Positions 4,307 through 56,714 of a DNA stretch of 64,000 bases are shown here, one piece after another. The notes beneath the pieces were generated by a model that ran no database searches, was not told where the DNA came from, and worked only from the letters and a program-made list of their open reading frames with translations. Position 1 is the stretch's first letter; each line of letters starts with the position of its first letter. The stretch is from Candidatus Latescibacterota bacterium (lineage in GTDB: Bacteria > Latescibacterota > UBA2968 > GCA-2709665). The position numbers and the translations under genes were made by a program. Location: assembly GCA_965219455.1 (NCBI GenBank), contig OZ244744.1:1440001-1504000 (forward strand). Direction: 5' to 3'.

Positions 4307-6571
4307 ATGATGACTCGCACCGATAGACGACGATTCCCCATCCTGTTCGCCGCCATAGCGGCGCTGGCCCTGGCGATGGCCCTGCTGTTCTCTCCGGTCC
4401 AGGCCCAGGAGGGCTCGGCGCCCGACCAGCCCACGGGCCTCTCCGCCACGGCGACCCACGACCAGGTGGTCCTCACCTGGGACGACCCGGGCGACGCCAG
4501 CATCACCGGCTACGTCATCCTGCGGCGCGTGAACAATACCGGGGGCGAGTTCAGTGAGCTCGTGGCGGACACGGGGACGGCGGCGACCACCTACACCGAC
4601 GCTACCGTAAAGGCCAATACTACCTACACCTACCGCATCAAGGCGACCAACGAGCACGGGGTGAGCGAGCGTTCCCGCTGGTTCCACATCAACGTCCCGG
4701 CAGCCCCTGAGCCGGAGGAGGAGCAGGCCCCCGAACCGCCCGACCAGCCCACGGGCCTGGACGCCACGGCGACCCACGACCAGGTGGTCCTGACCTGGGA
4801 CGACCCTGACGACGACACCATCACCGGCTACGTCATCCTGCGGCGCGTCCGCGTGAACGATACCGGGGGCGAGTTCAGTGTGCTGGTGGCGGACACGGGG
4901 ACGGCGGCGACCACCTACACCGACGCTACCGTAAAGGCCAATACTACCTACACCTACCGCATCAAGGCCATCAACAAACACGGGGTGAGCGAGCGCTCCC
5001 GCTGGTTCCACATCGACACGCCGGCCGCGCCGGAGGCCGGCGAAGGCGACGACCAGGACGAGCAGGACGGCGGCGCGCCCGGCCATGCCACGCCGCCCGG
5101 TCCCGGCGGGCGGGCGAACGTCTCGGAGCCCGACGGCGAAGACCTGCCCGAAGGCATCACCACCACCGGTAGAGTTGAGGTCGGCGGTTCGGTCACGGGC
5201 GAAATCGCCCCAGCTCTCGACGTCGACTGGTTCGCGGTCGAGCTGAAGAAGGGCAAGCGATACCAGTTCGACGTGGAGGGGGCGGACACCGGCCGAGGCA
5301 ACTTGGCGGATCCGCATCTTTGGGGGTTGCAGGATGCGGAAGGACAGGCGATATCCGGTGCGAGGAGTAACGACGGCGGTGTGGGGAAGAACGGCCGGGT
5401 CATCAACACGCCCGACGCGGAAGGCACCTACTACATAGCTGTGTCCGGCGCAGCCAACACGACGGGCACCTACACGCTGTCGGTGATCGTGCTGGGCGCG
5501 AACGGCGTCTCGGAGGCCGACACGGACTTTCCCAGAACCACCGCCACCACAGGCCGGGTCGAGGTCGGGGCCTCGGCCACGGGCAACATCGACCCTGGCG
5601 ACGATTTGGACGGGTTCCGTGTCAATCTGGAGGCGGGCAAGCGATACCGGTTCGACCTGGAGGGCGCGGACACCGGCCGCGGCTCCCAGGCGGACCCGAT
5701 CCTGGCGCTCTACGGCGACTCCTTCAACGTCTCCCACTACATTGATGAGGACGACGACGGCGGCGAGGGACTTAACAGCCGACTGACCTACACGGCGACC
5801 GCGACCGGCGCCTACCACCTGGAAGTAGCGGGCTTGGACCCAGGCACCTACACGCTGTCGGTGCGTAGAATTTTGGTGGCAGTTGCCGTTCCGCCCGGCG
5901 GTCTGGGTCCCTCGGAGGTCCCGGGCGCGGTCCGCAATGTGCAGGTGTCCGGTACAGAACGAACGAGAGTCGTGTATTGGGACGCGCCGGACGAGACCCA
6001 AACCGGCGCGCAATGGATCACGGAGTTCCGCATCTACGCCTCAACCGGTGCGGGTTGCGATGGTTGGAAGGCGGCCGAATACGAGGTGGAGCACCCCGGA
6101 TTCACCACACCCCCAGAGCACCCCGACGGCACCCCGACGGGTTTCAGATACTTCAAGATCGTCGAGGTGGCAAGCGATGTAGCTGGTTCAGACGGTTTCT
6201 CAGTTCAATTCGGCGTGAGCGCGGTCAACGATCTCGGTGAAGGGCCATGCGTGGGTGAGCCCGCCCCGGCGTCCAAGCCGGCGCTCGCGGACGGGCCGCC
6301 GGGCCTGGCGCCCAACGCGCCCAACCCCTTCAACGCCACCACTCTCATCCCATATCGCCTGGACACGGACGGACCGGTGCGCCTGGAGATCTACAACCTC
6401 CTCGGGCAGTCCATTCGCACCCTGGTGGACGAGGTGCAGACCGCCGGCTCCTACCGGGTGTCCTGGGACGCCCGCGACGCAACGGGGCGGCGCGTGTCCA
6501 CGGGAATTTATTTCACGCGCCTGCACTATCCGGGCGGCGTGCAGACCCGGCGCATGCTTTACCTCGAGTAG
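4307..6571 (+). CDS. Secreted modular protein: signal peptide, 2x FN3, 2x PPC-like (pre-peptidase C-terminal) beta domains, unique FN3-like domain, C-terminal FlgD-Ig-like domain
   Basis: ATG at 4307 after GAAGGAG; Arg-rich n-region, hydrophobic h-region, VQA/QE cleavage; DVDWFAVEL..G.RYQFDVEG...GTYTLSV repeats; same PNPFN C-terminus as the upstream gene. Confidence 0.88.
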   Translation: MMTRTDRRRFPILFAAIAALALAMALLFSPVQAQEGSAPDQPTGLSATATHDQVVLTWDDPGDASITGYVILRRVNNTGGEFSELVADTGTAATTYTDATVKANTTYTYRIKATNEHGVSERSRWFHINVPAAPEPEEEQAPEPPDQPTGLDATATHDQVVLTWDDPDDDTITGYVILRRVRVNDTGGEFSVLVADTGTAATTYTDATVKANTTYTYRIKAINKHGVSERSRWFHIDTPAAPEAGEGDDQDEQDGGAPGHATPPGPGGRANVSEPDGEDLPEGITTTGRVEVGGSVTGEIAPALDVDWFAVELKKGKRYQFDVEGADTGRGNLADPHLWGLQDAEGQAISGARSNDGGVGKNGRVINTPDAEGTYYIAVSGAANTTGTYTLSVIVLGANGVSEADTDFPRTTATTGRVEVGASATGNIDPGDDLDGFRVNLEAGKRYRFDLEGADTGRGSQADPILALYGDSFNVSHYIDEDDDGGEGLNSRLTYTATATGAYHLEVAGLDPGTYTLSVRRILVAVAVPPGGLGPSEVPGAVRNVQVSGTERTRVVYWDAPDETQTGAQWITEFRIYASTGAGCDGWKAAEYEVEHPGFTTPPEHPDGTPTGFRYFKIVEVASDVAGSDGFSVQFGVSAVNDLGEGPCVGEPAPASKPALADGPPGLAPNAPNPFNATTLIPYRLDTDGPVRLEIYNLLGQSIRTLVDEVQTAGSYRVSWDARDATGRRVSTGIYFTRLHYPGGVQTRRMLYLE

Positions 6572-6645
6572 GCCCGGCATGGAGATCGCCGCCGACCGCA
6601 TCCTCTCGGCCGGAATCGAGCCGGCGGCGGTCCTCAACCGGCCTT
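6295..6645 (+). repeat. Copy 2 of the shared C-terminal sorting domain plus spacer
   Basis: Aligns by eye with 3864-4214 with few substitutions. Confidence 0.9.
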
Positions 6646-6736
6646 CATGAAAGTAATGGAGAAGTTGCCATGCATTTGAAATCGACCGACCACCGGCCGG
6701 AACGGGCAATCGCCATCGGCACGTGATGAAGGAGCC

Positions 6737-9700
6737 ATGATGATTCGCACCGGCAGACGACGATTCTCCATCCTGTTCGCGGCCATCGCGGCCCTGGCCC
6801 TGCTCTTCCCGGTCCAGGCCCAGGAGGGCTCGGCGCCGGCCAAGCCCAGGGGGCTCTCCGCCACGGCGTCCCATGACCAGGTGGTCCTCACCTGGGACGA
6901 CCCAGGTGACGACAGCATCACCGGCTACGTGATCCTGCGCCGCAACCGCCAGACCGACCGAAAGGGCGAGTTCAGAGAATTAGTGCCGGACACGGGCACC
7001 GCCGCGACCAGCTACACCGACGACAGGGTGGCGGCTGGCACTCCCTATACCTACCGCATCAAGGCCATCAACAAACACGGGGTGAGCGAGCGCTCCCGCT
7101 GGTTCCACGTCGACACGCCGGCGGCCCCCGAGCGGCCCGACAAGCCCAGGGGCCTGGACGCCACGGCGACCCACGACCAGGTGGTCCTCACCTGGGACGA
7201 CCCGGGCGACGACAGCATCACCGGCTACGTCATCCTGCGGCGCGTGCGCGTGAACAATACCGGGGGCGAGTTCAGTGAACTGGTGGAGGACACGGGGACA
7301 GCGGCGACCACCTACACCGACGCTACCGTAAAGGCCAATACTACCTACACCTACCGCATCAAGGCCATCAACAAACACGGGGTGAGCGAGCGCTCCCGCT
7401 GGTTCCACATCGACACGCCGGCCGCGCCGGAGGCCGTCGAAGGCGACGCCCCCGACGAGCAGGACGGCGGCGCGCCCGGCCATGCCACGCCGCCCGGTCC
7501 CGGCGGGCGGGCGAACGTCTCGGAGGGCAACACCGACCTGCCCGAAGGCACCACCACCACCGGCGAGGTGGACGTCGGTGGCTCGGTCACGGGGAACGTC
7601 GATAGGGACGCCGACGTCGACTGGTTCCGCGTCGAGTTGGAGGCGGACACGAGATACCAGTTCGACGTGGAGGGGGCGGATACCGGCCGCGGCAACTTGG
7701 CGGATCCGTTTCTTTGGGGGTTGTATGATGCGGGAGGACAGGCGATATCCGGTGCGAGGAGCAACGATGGCGGTGTGGGCAAAAACGGCCGTGTTATCTA
7801 CACGCCCACGGCGGACGGCACCTACTACATAGCTGTGTCCGGCACAGCCACCACGACCGGCACCTACACGCTGTCGGTGATCGTGCTGGGCGCGAACGGC
7901 GTCTCGGAGGCCGACACGGACTTTCCCGCCACCACCGCCACCACCGGCCGGGTCGACGTCGGGGCCTCGGTCACGGGCACCATCAGCAACGCAGACTACG
8001 ACTATTTCCGCGTCGATCTGGAGGCGGGCAAGACCTACCAGTTCGACCTGGAAGGGGCGGATTCCGGCCGCGGCACCTTGGTAGACCCGTTCCTGTCGCT
8101 CTATGACGGGTCCGCAACCTTCCTTCTCGCAGACGACGACAGCGGCACGAACCTCAACAGCCAGATGGTCTACAATGCGGCCTCGGCCGGCGCCCACTAC
8201 CTCAGGGCCACCACTGGTGCTGCCAACCTCACGGGCACCTACACGCTGTCGGTGGGCGGCGAGACGCCGATGCTCTCGACGGACGCGACGCTGAGCGGGC
8301 TGTCGCTGGGCACGGGGGTGACGCTGAGCCCGGCCTTCGCCTCGGGCACGGTCACCTACACGGCGTCGGTCGCCAACAGCGTCGACGAGGTGACGGTGAC
8401 GCCGACGACGAACCACGCCAGCGCGACGGTCGAGATTCTAGACACGGACGACATGGAGGACGACTTCCAGGTGGCGCTGTCGGTGGGCGACACCGTCATC
8501 AAGGTGAAGGTGACGGCCGAGGACGGCACCTCGACGCAGACCTACACGGTGACCGTGACGCGCGACGACTTTCCCAACGACAACAACACCACCGGCGAGG
8601 TCGAGGTGGGCGGCACAGTAACGGGCAACATCGGGACGGTCGGCGACTACGACCGGTTCAAAGTGGAACTGGAGGCGGGTACGCGATACCAGTTGGATCT
8701 GGAGGGCGCGGACACCGACCGGGGCACCCTGGCGGACCCGCACCTGGGCCTCTACGACGCGATCGGGAGCCACCTTCAGGGTGACAACGGCCAAAGGGGC
8801 GACGACAACAGCGGCGTGGGCGTCAACGCCCGGATGATCTACACCCCGGCCGCGTCCGGCGACTTCTACCCAGTGGTGACCGAAATCAATGACAATCGTA
8901 CCGGCACCTACACGCTGTCGGTGATCGTGCTGGGCGCGAACGGCGCCTCGGAGGCCGACACGGACTTTCCCGCCGACAACACGACCTCCGGCCGGGTCGA
9001 GGTCGGCGCATCGGCCACGGGCAACATCGGCATCGCCAATGACTATGACTGGTTCCGCGTCGATCTGGAGGCGGGCAAGACCTACCAGATCGACCTGAAG
9101 GGCATTGGTGGCGGCGGCGGCACCTTGGAAAACCCTTATCTGCTCAATATCCGCGACTCATCCGGCACCGAGATTGACGGCACCGAGAATGACGATGTCG
9201 ACCCCTCTAACGACATCTACGACAGCCAGACCGTCTACACGCCGACCGCGGCCGGCACCTACTACCTGGTAGCGGTTAGCGGGGTCACCGGGGGAACGGG
9301 CACCTACACGCTGTCGGTGCGTGACATCACGACGCCGCCATGCACGCTGAACACGGGCGACATCTGGTGCGGCGCGGTGACGGTGGCAGAGATCAAGACT
9401 GCCGACGACGCGCTTGTCGGACACGGTTTTGTTGATGGAGGTGGCCTCAGCGCGGGCAGCCTTGCCGGCTACCCTGACGAAACGGTGTTCTCGGTCGGGG
9501 ACAACGACTACACGATCCAAGGCGCTTACATCCAAGTCCCAACTGCGGAACACCTCACGGGCACCCTGTCCGTCGTGCTCACCGCCGATCTCACCGACGA
9601 TGACAAGGCGGGCCTGCTGCTCCCGGTCGACGGCACCACCACCCCATTCGAGTTCAGCGATGCCGCCAAAGGGGGCACCACCGGCCTCTACTCTTGGGGT

Positions 9701-50990: not shown

Positions 50991-51025
50991 ATCGAAATAC
51001 GTCGCATTAACGATAGGTTTTGACA

Positions 51026-51430
51026 ATGCACCTCGACGACCGCCTCGTCGAAGCGGCTGTTTCACAAGCAGAACGCCGGTTTCCAAATGGCCGCCGTGGA
51101 GCAGCCGCGCTCTATTTGTCCGACGGACGCATCCTCACCAGCGTCGCTTTCGACAGTCCAAACGATAAAGTGAATCTATGTCACGAAACAGGCGCAATCT
51201 GTGAAGCAAATCGTCTGAACCTGTCGGTAACCGCTTCGGTCTGCGTCGACAGACAATCGGAGAGCGATCCGTTCTACATCCTCACGCCGTGCGGCGTCTG
51301 CCAGGAACGCCTGGCGTTGTGGGGGCTCGACGTCGAAGTCGCCGTTCCAATGCCCGGCGCGCCTCACAAATGGCAGGCCATGAAACATCGGGACGTCCAG
51401 CCGTACTATTGGAGGAATGGGTTTGGTTAA
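51026..51430 (+). CDS. Cytidine-deaminase-like zinc deaminase
   Basis: LCHETGAICEA and TPCGVCQERL zinc-binding motifs. Confidence 0.85.
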   Translation: MHLDDRLVEAAVSQAERRFPNGRRGAAALYLSDGRILTSVAFDSPNDKVNLCHETGAICEANRLNLSVTASVCVDRQSESDPFYILTPCGVCQERLALWGLDVEVAVPMPGAPHKWQAMKHRDVQPYYWRNGFG

Positions 51431-51671
51431 GCCACGTGGCAGGTTTTACAGATCCGAAGCTCCAATCGAAAAAGCCCAACGGTATGGTGGCGGCCGTTGG
51501 GCTTCTTTGTATATGTCGATTTGCGAACCGTTTGGGTTTGCCGGGAATTCCAATTGTCGTCGGACCGGAATTTCAAAATGTCGCTAATCGGATTGACGAG
51601 AAGAGAAGGCGAACCGTCAGGTGCCTACAGATTTGGGGTCGATTATCCGATGATCGAACAGCCTTGAACGA

Positions 51672-52049
51672 TCATGGCCGGAAGGTTTTCAAGTCGAGTT
51701 CACTGATTGCGCGGTAGTGTTTGCGGTTGGCGGTGCAAAGTGTCAGATGACGTTCAACGGCAGTTGCCGTAATCAGGGCATCCGCCAGAGACAGTGCCGT
51801 CTTGAGCGTATATTCCTCCATATATACGGATGCTCTGTGACCGATGACTTCCGTGAGAGGCAAGGTCTGAAAGGCGTGATCTTTGAGGAAATACTTGATT
51901 TCCCTTAATTCCTGTCGGCTTCTCGCACCCTGAATCAGTTCCGCATACGTAACGAGCGATATCTGTCGGTCATCGTGCCTTTCTACAAGTTGAGCAGCCC
52001 CTTCATGGCCCCTGAAAACCCAGATCAAGACATCGGTATCAAAGATCAT
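51672..52049 (-). CDS. vapC: PIN-domain toxin
   Basis: MIFDTDVLI, ELIQGA, LADALITATA, TANRKHY. Confidence 0.9.
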   Translation of the reverse strand: MIFDTDVLIWVFRGHEGAAQLVERHDDRQISLVTYAELIQGARSRQELREIKYFLKDHAFQTLPLTEVIGHRASVYMEEYTLKTALSLADALITATAVERHLTLCTANRKHYRAISELDLKTFRP

Positions 52050-52284
52050 CCAGGCGGCCTTTTCTCAGATTGCGAACGAACGCGTCCACGTCCGCCATAT
52101 CTTTCCTGTCACGCCACATCCCGAACGCGGTATGGTCCGTTACTGATTTTTCCGTTCGCTGAAGGCTGGGTAACAGGATAGCCTTTTCCTTGCCTCGATA
52201 ATAGATGGTAACCGATTCGTTTCGGTCGAGCGCGAGCAATACGTCTTTCATGCGTCGTCTCAAGTCGAGAATGGTTGCTTTCAT
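52039..52284 (-). CDS. Phd/YefM-like antitoxin
   Basis: MKATILDLRRRMKDVLLALDRNESVTI..RGK; AAGGAGG RBS; overlaps vapC. Confidence 0.8.
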   Translation of the reverse strand: MKATILDLRRRMKDVLLALDRNESVTIYYRGKEKAILLPSLQRTEKSVTDHTAFGMWRDRKDMADVDAFVRNLRKGRLDDL

Positions 52285-52299
52285 AATTCCTCCTTGAAG

Positions 52300-52337
52300 T
52301 GCACACTTAATATGTGCAATTAAGGGAAGGATGTCAA
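52300..52337 (-). promoter_or_regulatory. Promoter/operator of the vapBC-type operon
   Basis: Minus strand TTGACA-N17-CATATT; palindrome TGCACA-N7-TGTGCA at 52300-52318. Confidence 0.6.
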
Positions 52338-52379
52338 GCTGCAAATTGGTTCAGGCACCGATATTGGGGTTTCTCCGTG

Positions 52380-52571
52380 CCAGACCCCATGGCCGCGCTG
52401 TGGAACGTACTCGTTGGACCTCACGACACTTCACCACCTATCGGAGTTCCAGTATCCACTTCACCGTGTATGTTGTCCTCGGTCACACGGGCCAAAAGGT
52501 CATCGAGATTCAAGTCGGACGGCCTCACAGGTTCAATGACCGGTTTCTTTCCTCGCAGCGATAATTCCACC
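52380..52571 (-). pseudogene. Remnant of mazE 3' half and mazF 5' end
   Basis: Translates VELSLRGKKPVIEPVRPSDLNLDDLLARVTEDNIHGEVDTGTPIGGEVS* then VRSNEYVPQRGHGVW, paralogous to the intact pair at 54190-54785. Confidence 0.85.
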
Positions 52572-52607
52572 GGAAAACTTGGTTTCATGCGGGTCAATTG
52601 ATGTGGT

Positions 52608-52760
52608 TCAGGCGCCGCAGCAGGATTCGTCGGGGGTGCCGTGCAGGGTTTGGCGCGTGGTTCGGGCGATGCGGTCGACTTCGGCGTCGCTCAGCGCGGT
52701 CACGTACGTTTCCGTTGGCTTGCGCACGACGGTATAGATCCGGTTATTCTTGAGTTGTCC
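52608..52760 (-). pseudogene. Duplicated 3' end (about 50 codons) of the radical SAM gene
   Basis: GQLKNNRIYTVVRKPTETYVTALSDAEVDRIARTTRQTLHGTPDESCCGA* versus GSLKNIQIYTVARDPAESYVTALSDAEVDHIARTTRQMLPGIPVESYYGA* at 54970-55122. Confidence 0.88.
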
Positions 52761-52826
52761 ATCATCGTTCGGATTGCCGGTAATAAAGCAAATGGGCGAG
52801 GATAACGTCGATTAACAGGTTTTTCG

Positions 52827-53807
52827 TCAATTCCAATGACTTAGTTCGTGCAGTGCGGGCATCAGATAGGCGATGACGATGCTGACCACCAGGCCGAAAG
52901 TAATCTTTCCAAAGTCAGAAAACACCAGCCGCAACACTTCCTGACGGCTGCGGTGCCTCTCATTCCAAACGACGGCAATCTCGCGTCCGGCCAGCAGACC
53001 AACGAAAACCCAGGTCGTGCTCATCGGGAGATGGCTGACCTCCTTGAACAGGTAAAGCACGATCCCGTAAATCAGATCTACGAACGTCGCCGAACGGATA
53101 TCAGTGGTATTTGTCTTCGTCAGCACCACCTTCTGGATCGCACCGCCATGGTTGTAAAAGATAACGGCTTGCATAGCCAGCATCATCGCGATGGACGCGA
53201 TAAACCAGCCCATGGATACGTCTGGCGTGCGACTGATCGGATTGCGCGGCAGGAAGACATAGATATTGGCCAGATCCTGTATCAGCCACTGGCTCCAGAG
53301 AAAACCGGTCGAGCACCACTGCGCAACCACCCACCACGAGTTTGTTGGGCCCTCAGTTTTCCTGAAGCGTGACTCCAGTACCCTCGTGACCCACCTGTAA
53401 ATGAGAACGGCAGCCACGAAGGCCGTCGCATACCCCATCAACGACTTGATGAGCATGCTCGGCAGTGCCTTCGGTGCAAACACCGTCAGAGTCAGGAATG
53501 TGGTACTGACTGGAATACCCCCGCGGGTCAGCAAGAGCAGTACGAAAGGCGGGACACAGTAAACCCAGCTGAAGTGATCTGGCACTTGAATCGACTGAAG
53601 TCTGCCATAGGAGACATCGCCGTCATAGACCACCCACCCATATACGAGGACGACAGTCAGTATGCCGCCGGTAAAGAGCCATAGCACCCACCATGGGCGG
53701 CGAGAGTTGGAACTGAGAAATGTCCCCAAAGTCTGGATTGCGTCGTTACCGACAATGGAATACGCCCCGAGCGAGAAGCCGATAACCATTAAAACTTCCA
53801 GACTCAT
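52827..53807 (-). CDS. Polytopic membrane protein, distantly PiT/PHO4-like
   Basis: Many TM segments; VGNDAIQTLG, GIPVSTT and LPMSTT echo PiT signature motifs (GxND, PxSTT twice). Confidence 0.6.
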   Translation of the reverse strand: MSLEVLMVIGFSLGAYSIVGNDAIQTLGTFLSSNSRRPWWVLWLFTGGILTVVLVYGWVVYDGDVSYGRLQSIQVPDHFSWVYCVPPFVLLLLTRGGIPVSTTFLTLTVFAPKALPSMLIKSLMGYATAFVAAVLIYRWVTRVLESRFRKTEGPTNSWWVVAQWCSTGFLWSQWLIQDLANIYVFLPRNPISRTPDVSMGWFIASIAMMLAMQAVIFYNHGGAIQKVVLTKTNTTDIRSATFVDLIYGIVLYLFKEVSHLPMSTTWVFVGLLAGREIAVVWNERHRSRQEVLRLVFSDFGKITFGLVVSIVIAYLMPALHELSHWN

Positions 53808-54068
53808 AGAGAATCCTCTCCAGGCAAAGTTGTGTTATGGCGATGGTCTGTGGCGATGCCGTTTCGCCGGAAGGTAGAAAAACCTGATCACAGAACAGTC
53901 GATTGGACGCTGGGAAACCGAGGGCCGGGCGTTGCGTCGCCGGGTAGGACAACAGGCAAAAAAAAACCCCGACGCGGTTCCGGAGTAACGTTCCTGTTCT
54001 TCGGTTATTCGTGTCCTGTTTCAAATGACGTTTTCCGAATCGTCAACTCACGCTTTCCTCTCCCCCCA

Positions 54069-54095
54069 ATTATACTACATAAAACCCGATGTCAA
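54069..54095 (-). promoter_or_regulatory. Possible sigma70 promoter for the PiT-like gene
   Basis: Minus strand TTGACA-N15-TATAAT; perfect hexamers but a short spacer. Confidence 0.4.
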
Positions 54096-54189
54096 ACTTT
54101 AAATTGGATTCAGGCCCGATCCGGATGGTGAGAAATCCGGGAATGGGAAGGGTTGATCTGCGGTACCTTATGACTCTGTTGGTTTTCCA

Positions 54190-54549
54190 TCACGACCCAT
54201 ATTCCCGTGCCAGGAGCGTACCAACTCTCTGTAAAACCGCATCCACTATCTCTGTAGGCAATGGACGAATCAAACCTGCGTTTCTCGCCCGCCAGTCCAG
54301 GCTCTTGACCTGATCTGACAGAATAACACCCGTCACATCCAAACCCGGTGGGATGGCGACCTCAAAGGGATACCCCTTCACCTGATTGGTAATTGGACAG
54401 AGTATTGCCAGACGGGTCTTGCTATTGTAAGCCCCGTTTGAGAGTACAACAGCGGGGCGACGTCCTCCTTGCTCATGTCCTGCCTGTGGATGGAAGTCAA
54501 TCCAGACCGCATCGCCGCATTGTGGTACGTACTCGCTCGACCTTACCAT
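54190..54549 (-). CDS. mazF: MazF/PemK endoribonuclease toxin
   Basis: GDAVWIDFHPQAGHEQGGRRPAVVLS, CPIT..VKGYPFEV, DQVKSLDWRAR. Confidence 0.93.
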   Translation of the reverse strand: MVRSSEYVPQCGDAVWIDFHPQAGHEQGGRRPAVVLSNGAYNSKTRLAILCPITNQVKGYPFEVAIPPGLDVTGVILSDQVKSLDWRARNAGLIRPLPTEIVDAVLQRVGTLLAREYGS

Positions 54550-54785
54550 ACTTCGCGGCCAATCGGAGGTCCGGTATCCACTTCACCGTGTATGTTGTCC
54601 CTGGTAACAAGGGCCAAAAGGTCGTCCAAATTCAAGTCGGACGGACTTACAGGTTCGATGACCAGTTCCTTACCACGCAGCGACAATTCGACCTGAGAAT
54701 TGGGTTGAAGTCCAATTTGAGCAGCGAGTGGCTTGGGAATACGCAGGGCTAGACTATTGCCCCATTTATGCACACGGGTTTCCAT
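54543..54785 (-). CDS. mazE: AbrB/MazE antitoxin
   Basis: METRVHKWGNSLALRIPK...LDDLL...NIHGEVDTG..GREVW; GGAGG RBS. Confidence 0.92.
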   Translation of the reverse strand: METRVHKWGNSLALRIPKPLAAQIGLQPNSQVELSLRGKELVIEPVSPSDLNLDDLLALVTRDNIHGEVDTGPPIGREVW

Positions 54786-54969
54786 ATCGTTCCTCCATGA
54801 TTTGGTAGATACAATGAAGATACATCGACAAACAGATAGATCAAGAAAAATCTCGAACAATAGCTGTCATACAGGCTGGGAATATGATTGCGGAACTGCG
54901 TGAAATATGGCTAGACTGAATTGAGACCACGCCGCATCAATCCTGTTCATCCATGTAAATTGACGTGGT

Positions 54970-55854
54970 TCAGGCGCCGTAGTAGGACTCGACGGGGATG
55001 CCGGGCAGCATCTGGCGCGTGGTTCGGGCGATGTGGTCCACTTCGGCGTCGCTCAGGGCGGTCACGTACGATTCCGCGGGATCCCGGGCGACCGTGTAGA
55101 TCTGGATATTTTTGAGGCTTCCACCCTGTTCCAGGACGTCGGAGAGGATGTTGCAGAAGGCGACGATTTCTTCGTCGGGCGGCGGTTGGCCGTGAACGCG
55201 CATGAACAGGCTCTGGATGACCAGGGGCCATCTTCGTGCAGCCAGTTTCAGATTGTCCACGATCCGTTCGAATGAGATGCGGGTGCGTTCCACCAGGTGG
55301 TAATACTCGGCGGTGCCGGCTTCCAGTTTCGCCCAGATCTCCCCGTTGTTCCCGTGCATGACGTCAAAAGCATCCAGAACCGCCGGGACGTGGAACCGGG
55401 TGCAGTTGGTGATGGCGGTGATTTTAACTTCGGGCAGGTCGAACGACCGCTTGACGTCCGCGGTTTTTTCGACGATCTCCCTGAAACGGGGATAGGTTGT
55501 AGGCTCGCCGTCGCCGGAAAAAGCGATGTCGTTGATCCGCTTGAGCCGATCGGGGATCTCCCGGAATGCCGGGTGCTGAAACAGGCGGCCTCCAATCGTG
55601 TCTCCAAGCAGGCCGTTGAGTTCGTCGATCAGTCGGTCTTCGTCCACGTCGCGCAGCACGGGTGCGACCGTGCGATCCACCTGGCAGTAAATGCAGTCGA
55701 AATTGCAGATCTTGTCCGGGTTCAGATTGATACCGACGGAGATGCCTCCGGAGCGCCGCGAGAGCACCGGATAGACGTACCGGTTGTTTTCGAAGAGCCT
55801 GGAGTGCGAGGTCACGGCCCGCCGTACGGCCGCCTCGGCGGATGGATTCGCCAT
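54970..55854 (-). CDS. Radical SAM protein
   Basis: CNFDCIYC (CxxxCxxC), SRRSGGISVGINL, FSGDGEPT; start uncertain. Confidence 0.9.
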   Translation of the reverse strand: MANPSAEAAVRRAVTSHSRLFENNRYVYPVLSRRSGGISVGINLNPDKICNFDCIYCQVDRTVAPVLRDVDEDRLIDELNGLLGDTIGGRLFQHPAFREIPDRLKRINDIAFSGDGEPTTYPRFREIVEKTADVKRSFDLPEVKITAITNCTRFHVPAVLDAFDVMHGNNGEIWAKLEAGTAEYYHLVERTRISFERIVDNLKLAARRWPLVIQSLFMRVHGQPPPDEEIVAFCNILSDVLEQGGSLKNIQIYTVARDPAESYVTALSDAEVDHIARTTRQMLPGIPVESYYGA

Positions 55855-56076
55855 ATATTCGCTTTCGTCAATCGGGATGGCGCCTGTCTGCCCTGCTTCG
55901 TTCCGCAGCGATCTGCCCGGATGGGGTTGACGCTCATTTCTATTGCAATATACCAAAGTTATCCATCTCGCGCACCGATTTCAAACCGTCTTTTTTTTGA
56001 ATCGCGTCAGGGCCGTTTTCCGCTTGTGTTCAGGGCAGAAAATCGATACCTTGTAGTCGGCAGGAAGTCGACACCT

Positions 56077-56101
56077 GGGCGACCACAAGGGTCGCCCCTA
56101 C
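56077..56101 (-). repeat. GTAG-type REP
   Basis: GGGCGACCACAAGGGTCGCCCCTAC. Confidence 0.75.
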
Positions 56102-56201
56102 GAAGCCAAACCTTCGCAATTGGACTTCGCCGGTCCGTAACGATAACCGGTGTTGGCTGACGGCTGATAGCTGTACGCTGACAGCTTTTTTAGAGGTTTT
56201 C

Positions 56202-56714
56202 ATGTCCACTTTTGTTGGCAGCCTGCCGGAACGCAAGAAGGTTTGCAAGGTTTCGTTCACGAACTGGGACAAAACGGTCGAGTGCAAACCGCACACCAAC
56301 CTTCGGCAACTGGCCATTGAAAACGATATCGGTCTCTACAACGGGATCTCCCGGTTCGCGAATTGCGAAGGCAACGGGTTGTGCGGAACCTGCACGGTCG
56401 AAGTTGTCCCGCAGGACGGCCTCACCGGAAAAGGCGCCAGGGAGAATCTACGCTTTCTGCTGCTGAAGGGAAATCTGCGCTTCGCCTGCCAGGTGGAGGT
56501 TACCGGAGACATACAGGTCACCAAACACGCGGGGTTGAAGGGGAACAAAAGGTACATACCCGGCATCGACCAGGCGGATGTGGTGCGCCTCTACCGGGAC
56601 GAGGGCAGGACAATAGCGGCGATCGCCGAGCAGAAGCAGTGTTCGGAGGCCAGGGTGGTTACCCTGCTCGAACGCGGTCGCGTCGAGTTACGCCGTCCGG
56701 GCTCGGCAGCATAG
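56202..56714 (+). CDS. 2Fe-2S ferredoxin with C-terminal helix-turn-helix-like extension
   Basis: CEGNGLCGTC...RFACQ; tail VVRLYRDEGRTIAAIAEQKQCSEARVVTLLERGRVELR. Confidence 0.8.
   Translation: MSTFVGSLPERKKVCKVSFTNWDKTVECKPHTNLRQLAIENDIGLYNGISRFANCEGNGLCGTCTVEVVPQDGLTGKGARENLRFLLLKGNLRFACQVEVTGDIQVTKHAGLKGNKRYIPGIDQADVVRLYRDEGRTIAAIAEQKQCSEARVVTLLERGRVELRRPGSAA

Follow-up and report, generated by a model that had tools for sequence, protein, structure and literature searches.

A small gene islet downstream of a radical SAM enzyme gene, located within a 64,000-nt stretch of a Candidatus Latescibacterota genome (the window; contig OZ244744.1, positions 1,440,001 to 1,504,000, assembly GCA_965219455.1), is best explained as a recombination scar in a variable islet specific to one genus. 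The scar would have formed by displacement of the radical SAM 3' end, through recombination that was homologous on one side and illegitimate on the other or through integration of a circle, and we place the probability of this explanation at about 0.7. The comparisons below involve the genome that holds the window (G000) and the 14 other species genomes of its genus (15 genomes in total), and features are given in window coordinates on the minus strand unless stated otherwise.

Along the minus strand, the intact radical SAM gene is followed by an intact mazEF, a PiT-like membrane protein gene, a 50-codon remnant of a second radical SAM 3' end, remnants of a second mazE and mazF (mazE' and mazF'), and vapBC (Table 1). 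This order, proposed in a sequence-only reading of the stretch, is borne out by open reading frame (ORF) calls, by Pfam and NCBIfam profiles, and by the repeats that the islet contains. Two direct repeats abut each other, with positions 52584 to 52761 matching 54946 to 55123 (81 to 82% identity) and positions 52380 to 52584 matching 54502 to 54706 (82% identity; repeat search, blastn), and together they comprise the radical SAM 3' end and the 5' part of mazE/mazF. The upper set is referred to as copy A and the lower as copy B; the latter is without a 240-bp stretch found in copy A, the joint being located at an AATT(G) microhomology. The arrangement is that expected of 3'-end displacement, in that an intact gene, here the anchor gene conserved in all 14 other genomes, is followed in the same orientation by cargo and by an orphaned, diverged duplicate of its 3' end, and in that the new part (mazEF of copy A and the PiT-like gene) differs in origin from the resident part. 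The mazE and mazF genes of copy A adjoin, as expected of a type II toxin-antitoxin module, and they overlap.

In seven relatives, as in copy B, mazF breaks off at a common point, after about codon 19, with the same flank and the same vapBC promoter behind it, and the flank of copy B shares lineage-specific letters with the sister species G011. The shared truncation, flank, and vapBC arrangement indicate that copy B is the resident type. Among the 14 relatives, only G009 has an intact mazF, and in a tree of the common mazE/mazF' part, copy A groups with G009 (support, 94/96). Placing copy A in the native clade (G011 and G013) was rejected by the approximately unbiased (AU) test (P = 0.0086), and placing copy B there was not (P = 0.095). 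Along with the common truncation, these results indicate that mazEF of copy A came from another lineage and that copy B was the resident.

The copies are direct, adjacent, and collinear, as they would be had the radical SAM 3' end been duplicated locally and in tandem to a point behind mazF, with the lower copy decaying over a long time through deletions and the PiT-like gene inserting independently. The radical SAM remnant is compatible with such a history, since the AU test does not exclude it from the clade of copy A (P = 0.35 to 0.48). Tandem duplication is nevertheless unlikely. Copy A has an intact mazF and copy B the truncation typical of the genus, so that A cannot be a copy of B, and the sisterhood of A and B for mazE/mazF', against which the grouping of A with G009 also speaks, is borderline rejected (P = 0.056). 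At 0.36, the synonymous divergence (dS) between A and B is roughly double the 0.17 that separates A from the sister species, which is without the duplication, and a foreign PiT-like gene stands exactly between the two copies.

The foreign affinity of the PiT-like gene is evident from its distribution. In each of the 14 relatives, a single copy resides at another locus and encodes a protein 77 to 80% identical to that of the window, and the single copy held by G000 is the one in the islet. The window protein is nearest to those of genera g2 and g6 (85 to 88% identity), and nucleotide homology to the g2 and g6 orthologues extends from 52804-52819 to 53808-53863. The native PiT locus of G000 is empty (C1:4957187-4957224), its flanks being 36 nt apart versus 2084 nt in G011. 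The vacancy at the native site, along with the closer relationship to other genera, indicates that a core PiT-like gene was replaced by a foreign copy in the islet. The 225-nt leader that precedes the gene has no homologue in the fetched loci or elsewhere in the genome, and it may be a relic of another module or simply a leader; no parent sequence was identified for the joint region on the other side (52761 to 52815).

The displaced radical SAM remnant of copy B is in frame and differs from copy A by 10.8 synonymous and 17.2 nonsynonymous differences, with a nonsynonymous divergence (dN) of 0.17 and a dN/dS of 0.48, compared with a mean of 0.19 and a maximum of 0.46 among intact genes (105 pairs). 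About nine of its replacements affect positions that are invariant in the 15 intact genes, including the terminal YY, and its protein identity is 72 to 76% to members of the genus and at most 58% to others. Judged by its sequence, the remnant is a decaying fragment of a once-functional allele of the genus type. That the remnants derive from once-functional alleles and not from fresh copies was part of the sequence-only reading, and the maintained frame and 18% divergence agree with this, but the radical SAM remnant has more nonsynonymous than synonymous differences. The comparison of remnants with intact copies gave a different value for mazE' (dN/dS of 0.23), which forms a 58-amino-acid (aa) ORF spanning what is presumably the toxin-binding, C-terminal half of MazE.

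A second, independent event is recorded in G013, where the radical SAM gene is followed by about 490 bp, mazE, 11 codons of mazF', radical SAM codons 295 to 328 with about 65 nt of intergenic sequence, and a vapB-like gene. The joint, where mazF codon 11 meets radical SAM codon 295, is a 4-nt microhomology. The two G013 copies differ at only 8 of 145 nt, indicating that this event is younger than that of the window. Radical SAM remnants thus occur in 2 of the 15 genomes of the genus (G000 and G013) with different joints, as expected of a recurring process, and they start at different places (codon ~266 to 278 in G000 and codon 295 in G013). The difference in breakpoints, one of which falls inside a toxin gene, disfavors a fixed recombination site. 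A third candidate remnant, in G009, was discarded because 268 of 1,000 random windows scored as high.

The gap in which these events occurred is variable throughout the genus. In each of the 14 relatives, about 10 kb downstream of the radical SAM gene was fetched, and the window proteins were mapped onto these loci. Between the radical SAM gene and a convergent gene for a PhyH-type oxygenase (PhyH2) lie from 1.1 to more than 9 kb, with about nine architectures in the 15 genomes; outgroup genus g5 and one metagenome contig have only 125 nt here and no cargo. Two genomes have vapBC alone, and two have vapBC with 5 to 6 kb of other genes. Seven genomes, including the sister species G011, have mazE, truncated mazF', and vapBC with short or long extensions. 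A mazE stub with vapBC occurs in one genome and one metagenome contig, intact mazEF with a vapB-like gene in G009, the second form with a radical SAM remnant in G013, and the form of the window in G000. The sequence-only reading had asked whether number and order vary among relatives or whether one fixed arrangement prevails, and they vary. Pfam searches of the 117 ORFs of the 14 gaps recovered mazE, PIN, HEPN/RES accompanied by a helix-turn-helix (HTH) protein, Schlafen AlbA_2 together with HATPase_c_4, a set of DUF6527, ThiF, and multiubiquitin, an IrrE-like peptidase accompanied by an HTH protein, and a few enzymes.

Recombinases are scarce. None of the 117 gap ORFs of the relatives matched an integrase or resolvase family, and there was no match to PF00589 (tyrosine recombinase) in the window region, which upholds the earlier description of the array as free of integrases. 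It had also proposed a search of the genome for a tyrosine recombinase linked to the motif. G000 encodes two full-length tyrosine recombinases, but these lie at 2.42 and 4.00 Mb, with three fragments at 4.55 to 5.03 Mb, far from the locus at 1.49 Mb. No serine recombinases were found in the G000 genome.

These results bear on the possibility that the islet represents the remains of one or more small integrative elements, placed in the radical SAM 3' end by a tyrosine integrase that was later lost. A duplicated 3' gene end flanking cargo is a classic signature of genomic islands, toxin-antitoxin and defense genes are common island cargo, and two transposase-family matches were recovered among the 117 gap ORFs of the relatives. 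An origin of this kind is quite improbable, however, given that neither an integrase nor a fragment of one was present in the 14 gaps. The repeat is no short att core but long (178 + 205 nt), and it takes in half of a toxin-antitoxin operon; the breakpoints differ in the two independent events, one being inside mazF; and the insert is a mosaic of a genus-type mazEF and the core gene of another genus. Neither an integrase at one end nor a shared crossover in independent insertions, both of which characterize islands, was observed.

The sequence-only reading had gone further and inferred an integron-like cassette array from a motif (AATTG(N0-5)G(A)TTCAGGC, plus strand) reported at four places. 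The literal pattern matches three times in the window. A loosened version matches four times, against 0.06 expected (none of 100 shuffles reached four), and 11 times in the genome (5.84 Mb), with four of the 11 at the locus. At 54958 and 52596, the motif represents the radical SAM stop region, present twice within the 178-nt repeat; at 54102 and 52344, it belongs to the duplicated mazEF 3' flank (a 33-nt repeat, 73% identity), which runs into a TTGACA box. The count of four holds for the loosened pattern, but the copies are not independent, because they form two homologous pairs in which each sequence was duplicated by the same event.

The likeness between flank and stop region was evaluated by local alignment against 1,000 random windows of the same genome. 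Random windows equaled or exceeded this likeness in 51 of 1,000 cases for the copy at 52344 and in 286 of 1,000 for that at 54102; for the same flank in eight relatives, random windows scored as high in 480 to 953 of 1,000 cases. Among the relatives, the mazEF 3' flank and the radical SAM stop region vary independently of each other, the former freely. Because the likeness is at chance level and the two regions vary independently, the flank does not represent an earlier remnant of the radical SAM gene, nor is the motif a conserved site. The resemblance was therefore dropped as a sign of older rounds of accretion, and the description of the accretion as iterative does not stand, a single displacement being visible in the window.

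An integron-like, site-specific cassette system, using the radical SAM stop region as its attachment site and a recombinase encoded elsewhere, is for these reasons strongly disfavored and very improbable. The density of the motif (4 matches in 2.6 kb versus 11 genome-wide) would suit such a system, as would the tendency of additions in the genus to adjoin the anchor gene, and each of the two short motif copies is indeed followed, as had been reported, by TTGACA and a different new downstream gene. Opposed to it are the homologous pairing and chance-level resemblance of the motif copies, the loss of likeness in the flanks of relatives, the unequal remnant starts with the G013 joint inside mazF, and the absence of integrases and resolvases from the gaps, with both tyrosine recombinases distant. 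Joints between motif copies, whose detection in reads had been proposed as a check, were not found in the contigs of four runs. Each module also has its own promoter-like sequence: vapBC has a predicted TTGACA/-10 promoter and an operator conserved throughout the genus, and mazE and the PiT-like gene appear to have upstream regions of their own. The islet resembles integrons in that newer units lie nearest the anchor and older ones have been pushed away, and toxin-antitoxin cassettes are typical of chromosomal integrons. It differs in that it has no IntI and no conserved site like attI or attC, its units appear to carry their own promoters, and its junctions are irregular and fall inside genes; by sequence, the adjacent IntI, the conserved att site of each cassette, and the promoterless cassettes with a common promoter that define integrons are all wanting.

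Sequencing reads argue against an artifactual origin of the structure. Nine of 23 listed runs contain at least half of the sampled words of the stretch, and contigs from four runs of four studies (X1, X4, X6, and X8) were compared, with the proviso that contigs drop rare forms. X1 matches the window throughout. X4, which comes from a different study than X1, the best run, and has a depth of 2, yielded contigs covering 51991 to 52425 and 52425 to 52892 with zero differences, and these bridge position 52325, the motif copies at 52344 and 52596, and the joint between PiT segment and remnant. Because contigs of X1 and X4 bridge all joints of the window form, the assembly is not chimeric, which had been named as an outcome that would overturn the interpretation. 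All four runs cover the upper segment, which spans the radical SAM gene through the PiT-like gene, and bins are uncovered at 52566 to 52739 in both X6 and X8 and at 52392 to 52565 in X6 as well. The allele in these two runs passes from the PiT flank at 52816 to a diverged 60-nt piece resembling mazE codons 2 to 21, then through about 44 letters to the vapBC promoter from about 52324, and it has neither the radical SAM nor the mazE'F' remnant. The same allele forms a minor path in X1 (depth of 8.7 versus 16), and its presence in all three runs indicates that the remnant is polymorphic within the species. Short-sided joints in the PiT-like gene and mazF (sides of 20 to 23 letters) were set aside as homologues from other organisms.

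As to how the scar arose, the resident arrangement would have been that of most of the genus, namely, the radical SAM gene, mazE, truncated mazF', the flank, and vapBC. DNA from a related lineage, carrying an intact mazEF of the other allele type and a PiT-like gene acquired earlier from another genus, would then have entered, with one end anchored where it shared homology with the radical SAM gene or the sequence just behind it, and the other joined without homology; alternatively, it would have entered as a circle through a single crossover. In either case, the live gene would keep a complete end, and the older radical SAM end and the old mazE'/mazF' would be stranded downstream, where they decay. 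No dedicated recombinase or recombination site would have been involved. We infer both the order of events and the pathway, be it a circular intermediate or homology-facilitated illegitimate recombination.

Several observations weigh against this account, beginning with the live radical SAM end. The sequence-only reading held that incoming DNA replaces the 3' end of the anchor gene and pushes older cargo downstream; the topology fits this, but the live end (copy A) does not look imported, since it groups with the sister species G011 (support, 87/89). The radical SAM remnant of copy B is on a long branch, and with its placement based on 159 columns, either of the two radical SAM ends may be the native one. 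When G000 and G011 were compared along the anchor gene in sliding windows, identity ranged, with noise, from 0.83 to 1.00 and showed no sharp break. The left crossover may have been at or behind the stop codon, or the donor of that part may have been a close relative. A donor order of mazEF, flank, and PiT-like gene was absent among the 14 genus genomes and 80 metagenome loci. Two breakpoints (54088 and ~52324) fall directly behind a TTGACAT -35 box, a position that might reflect site preference or selection for insertions that capture a promoter, and the latter is a possible and simple explanation. Finally, the pathway itself is not demonstrable from sequence.

The metagenome loci derive from a scan in which 80 loci were kept of 288 relatives, one of them at the genus level and resembling G007. 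The distant loci contained no toxin-antitoxin cargo and no second radical SAM match to the window query, although many of these contigs were short.

The kind of event proposed here is already known, and no new class of mechanism is involved. Displacement of rhs C termini has been proposed to proceed via a circular intermediate that recombines through one homologous crossover (Jackson et al. 2009, PMC2935791), and homology-facilitated illegitimate recombination was put forward for effector-immunity arrays of type VI secretion systems (T6SS) (Kirchberger et al. 2017, PMC5361080). These systems and contact-dependent inhibition (CDI) loci share with the islet a conserved upstream gene part that acts as the homologous anchor, incoming DNA that brings a new end and cargo, an old end and protective partner gene shunted downstream as orphans, the lack of an integrase, and the recurrence of independent events at one locus. 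In those systems, the anchor is a polymorphic toxin gene and the replaced end the selected variable part, whereas the anchor here is an ordinary radical SAM enzyme gene and the replaced end is collateral. The cargo here is also different, consisting of type II toxin-antitoxin modules and a transporter-like core gene, and one displacement is visible per genome and not a long array.

Homology-facilitated illegitimate recombination (de Vries and Wackernagel 2002, Prudhomme et al. 2002, and Meier and Wackernagel 2003, cited in PMC5361080; also PMC3240628) resembles the present case in having one homologous end and little homology at the other joint (4 nt in G013; AATT(G) at the deletion in copy B). 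The classic products combine an insertion with a deletion in the recipient, whereas part of the recipient is duplicated here, which fits a circle or sister-strand variant better. For core-gene-flanked and defense hotspots (Oliveira et al. 2017, PMC5635113; Johnson et al. 2023, PMC10250203), a comparable concentration of accessory genes in one gap between conserved genes is reported, with most variants lacking mobility genes; the corresponding content here is mazEF, vapBC, HEPN/RES, Schlafen-like, and ubiquitin-like genes. Unlike those hotspots, the present gap is small (1 to 10 kb), is confined to one genus, and retains readable scars of single events.

To these known systems, the present case adds toxin-antitoxin cargo, a retained orphan mazE, the xenologous replacement of a core gene, and two coexisting natural alleles. 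A limited search found no literature joining toxin-antitoxin modules, orphan antitoxins, and illegitimate recombination, which does not prove that there is none. The locus offers a clean, dated example of small accessory modules entering a chromosome without mobile-element machinery, in which conserved genes serve as landing pads and stranded ends record the events. It cautions annotators against taking repeated gene ends that enclose cargo as a sure sign of an integrase system, and the retention of orphan mazE and the foreign replacement of a transporter-like core gene deserve the attention of specialists.

An orphan mazE of 80 intact codons occurs in eight genomes of the genus (loci L021, L022, L024, L028, L029, L031, L032, and L033), with mazF truncated or missing and, in six of the eight, cut at the same point. 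The mean pairwise dN/dS of these orphans is 0.31 (28 pairs), which suggests, at the level of sequence, selection for the antitoxin mazE alone.

It is conceivable, though doubtful, that the gap acts as a stacking site for toxin-antitoxin modules, much as T6SS loci accumulate orphan immunity genes, and that such modules would enter beside the anchor without an integrase while older antitoxins would be kept as orphan "anti-addiction" genes. The persistence across the genus of an intact mazE beside a truncated mazF, at the dN/dS just given, speaks for such a role, and so does the onset of decay in the resident mazE, which is confined to the genome that acquired a complete mazEF. The location of the only copy of a genus-core transporter-like gene in the islet could possibly act as a stabilizer.

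Table 1. Features of the islet and its surroundings, in window coordinates
Feature	Position	Strand	Remarks
Intact radical SAM gene (anchor)	54970..55956	-	328-aa ORF; Pfam Radical_SAM; true start uncertain
Copy A of 178-nt repeat: live radical SAM 3' end, stop codon, and first intergenic bases	54946..55123	-	Includes motif copy 54958-54975
mazE (A), intact 80-aa antitoxin	54543..54785	-	Pfam MazE_antitoxin, 3e-12
mazF (A), intact 119-aa endoribonuclease toxin (predicted)	54190..54549	-	Pfam PemK_toxin, 6e-25; NCBIfam MazF, 126 bits (cutoff, 120)
mazEF 3' flank, copy A	54088..54120	-	Motif copy 54102-54115, then TTGACA 54095-54090; TATAAT 54074-54069 after 15-nt spacer
Leader (~225 nt) before PiT-like gene	53864..54087	-	Terminator-like hairpin 53966-53986
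PiT-like membrane protein gene with short flanks	52809..53863	-	Coding sequence 52827-53807; weak PHO4 match below Pfam cutoff
Joint region, PiT segment/radical SAM remnant	52761..52815	-	Part is possibly radical SAM sequence that has diverged strongly
Displaced radical SAM 3' remnant (copy B)	52596..52760	-	50 codons (52608-52760 with stop 52608-52610) and 12 nt intergenic; motif copy 52596-52613
mazE' codons 26-80 and the initial ~19 codons of mazF' (copy B)	52380..52595	-	Coding part 52380-52588
mazEF 3' flank, copy B	52330..52362	-	Motif copy 52344-52356; -35 box of vapBC promoter 52337-52332
vapBC promoter spacer, palindromic operator, and vapB	52039..52329	-	vapB 52039-52284; operator conserved across genus
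vapC, PIN-domain toxin (predicted)	51672..52049	-	
Hairpin (inverted repeat) between vapC and convergent cytidine deaminase gene	51469..51507	.	Distal end of islet in G000

In relatives, the sequence that precedes the vapBC -35 box is homologous to the mazEF 3' flank of copy A. A search of positions 51000 to 56300 against Rfam returned zero matches at E values of 1 or lower, and the RNA runs contained 0.09 to 0.11 of the sampled words. A genome-wide scan for other local, diverged direct repeats returned 1,264 merged candidates, which were mostly repeat-rich genes and paralogues and are not interpretable without annotation.

Beyond the distal hairpin, the cytidine deaminase gene (51020 to 51430, plus strand; above the NCBIfam cutoff) is intact in the window, and in G011, G013, G008, and G012 it is reduced to its last 31 to 41 codons beside PhyH2. 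That only 3' ends of this gene remain in four relatives indicates that the far side of the islet carries deletion scars as well. Directly behind the radical SAM stop codon, loci L032 and L034 contain a palindromic, GC-rich insert of about 55 nt that resembles a repetitive extragenic palindrome or a miniature inverted-repeat transposable element (REP/MITE-like); the other species are without it at the same place. The gap of L028 (G003) contains a Multiubiquitin/DUF6791-ThiF/DUF6527 gene set (ORFs at about 6525 to 8387 in locus coordinates), which looks from its composition like a ubiquitin-like defense system, and beside it are an AHJR-like nuclease match (below the Pfam cutoff) and an IrrE-like peptidase with an HTH protein.

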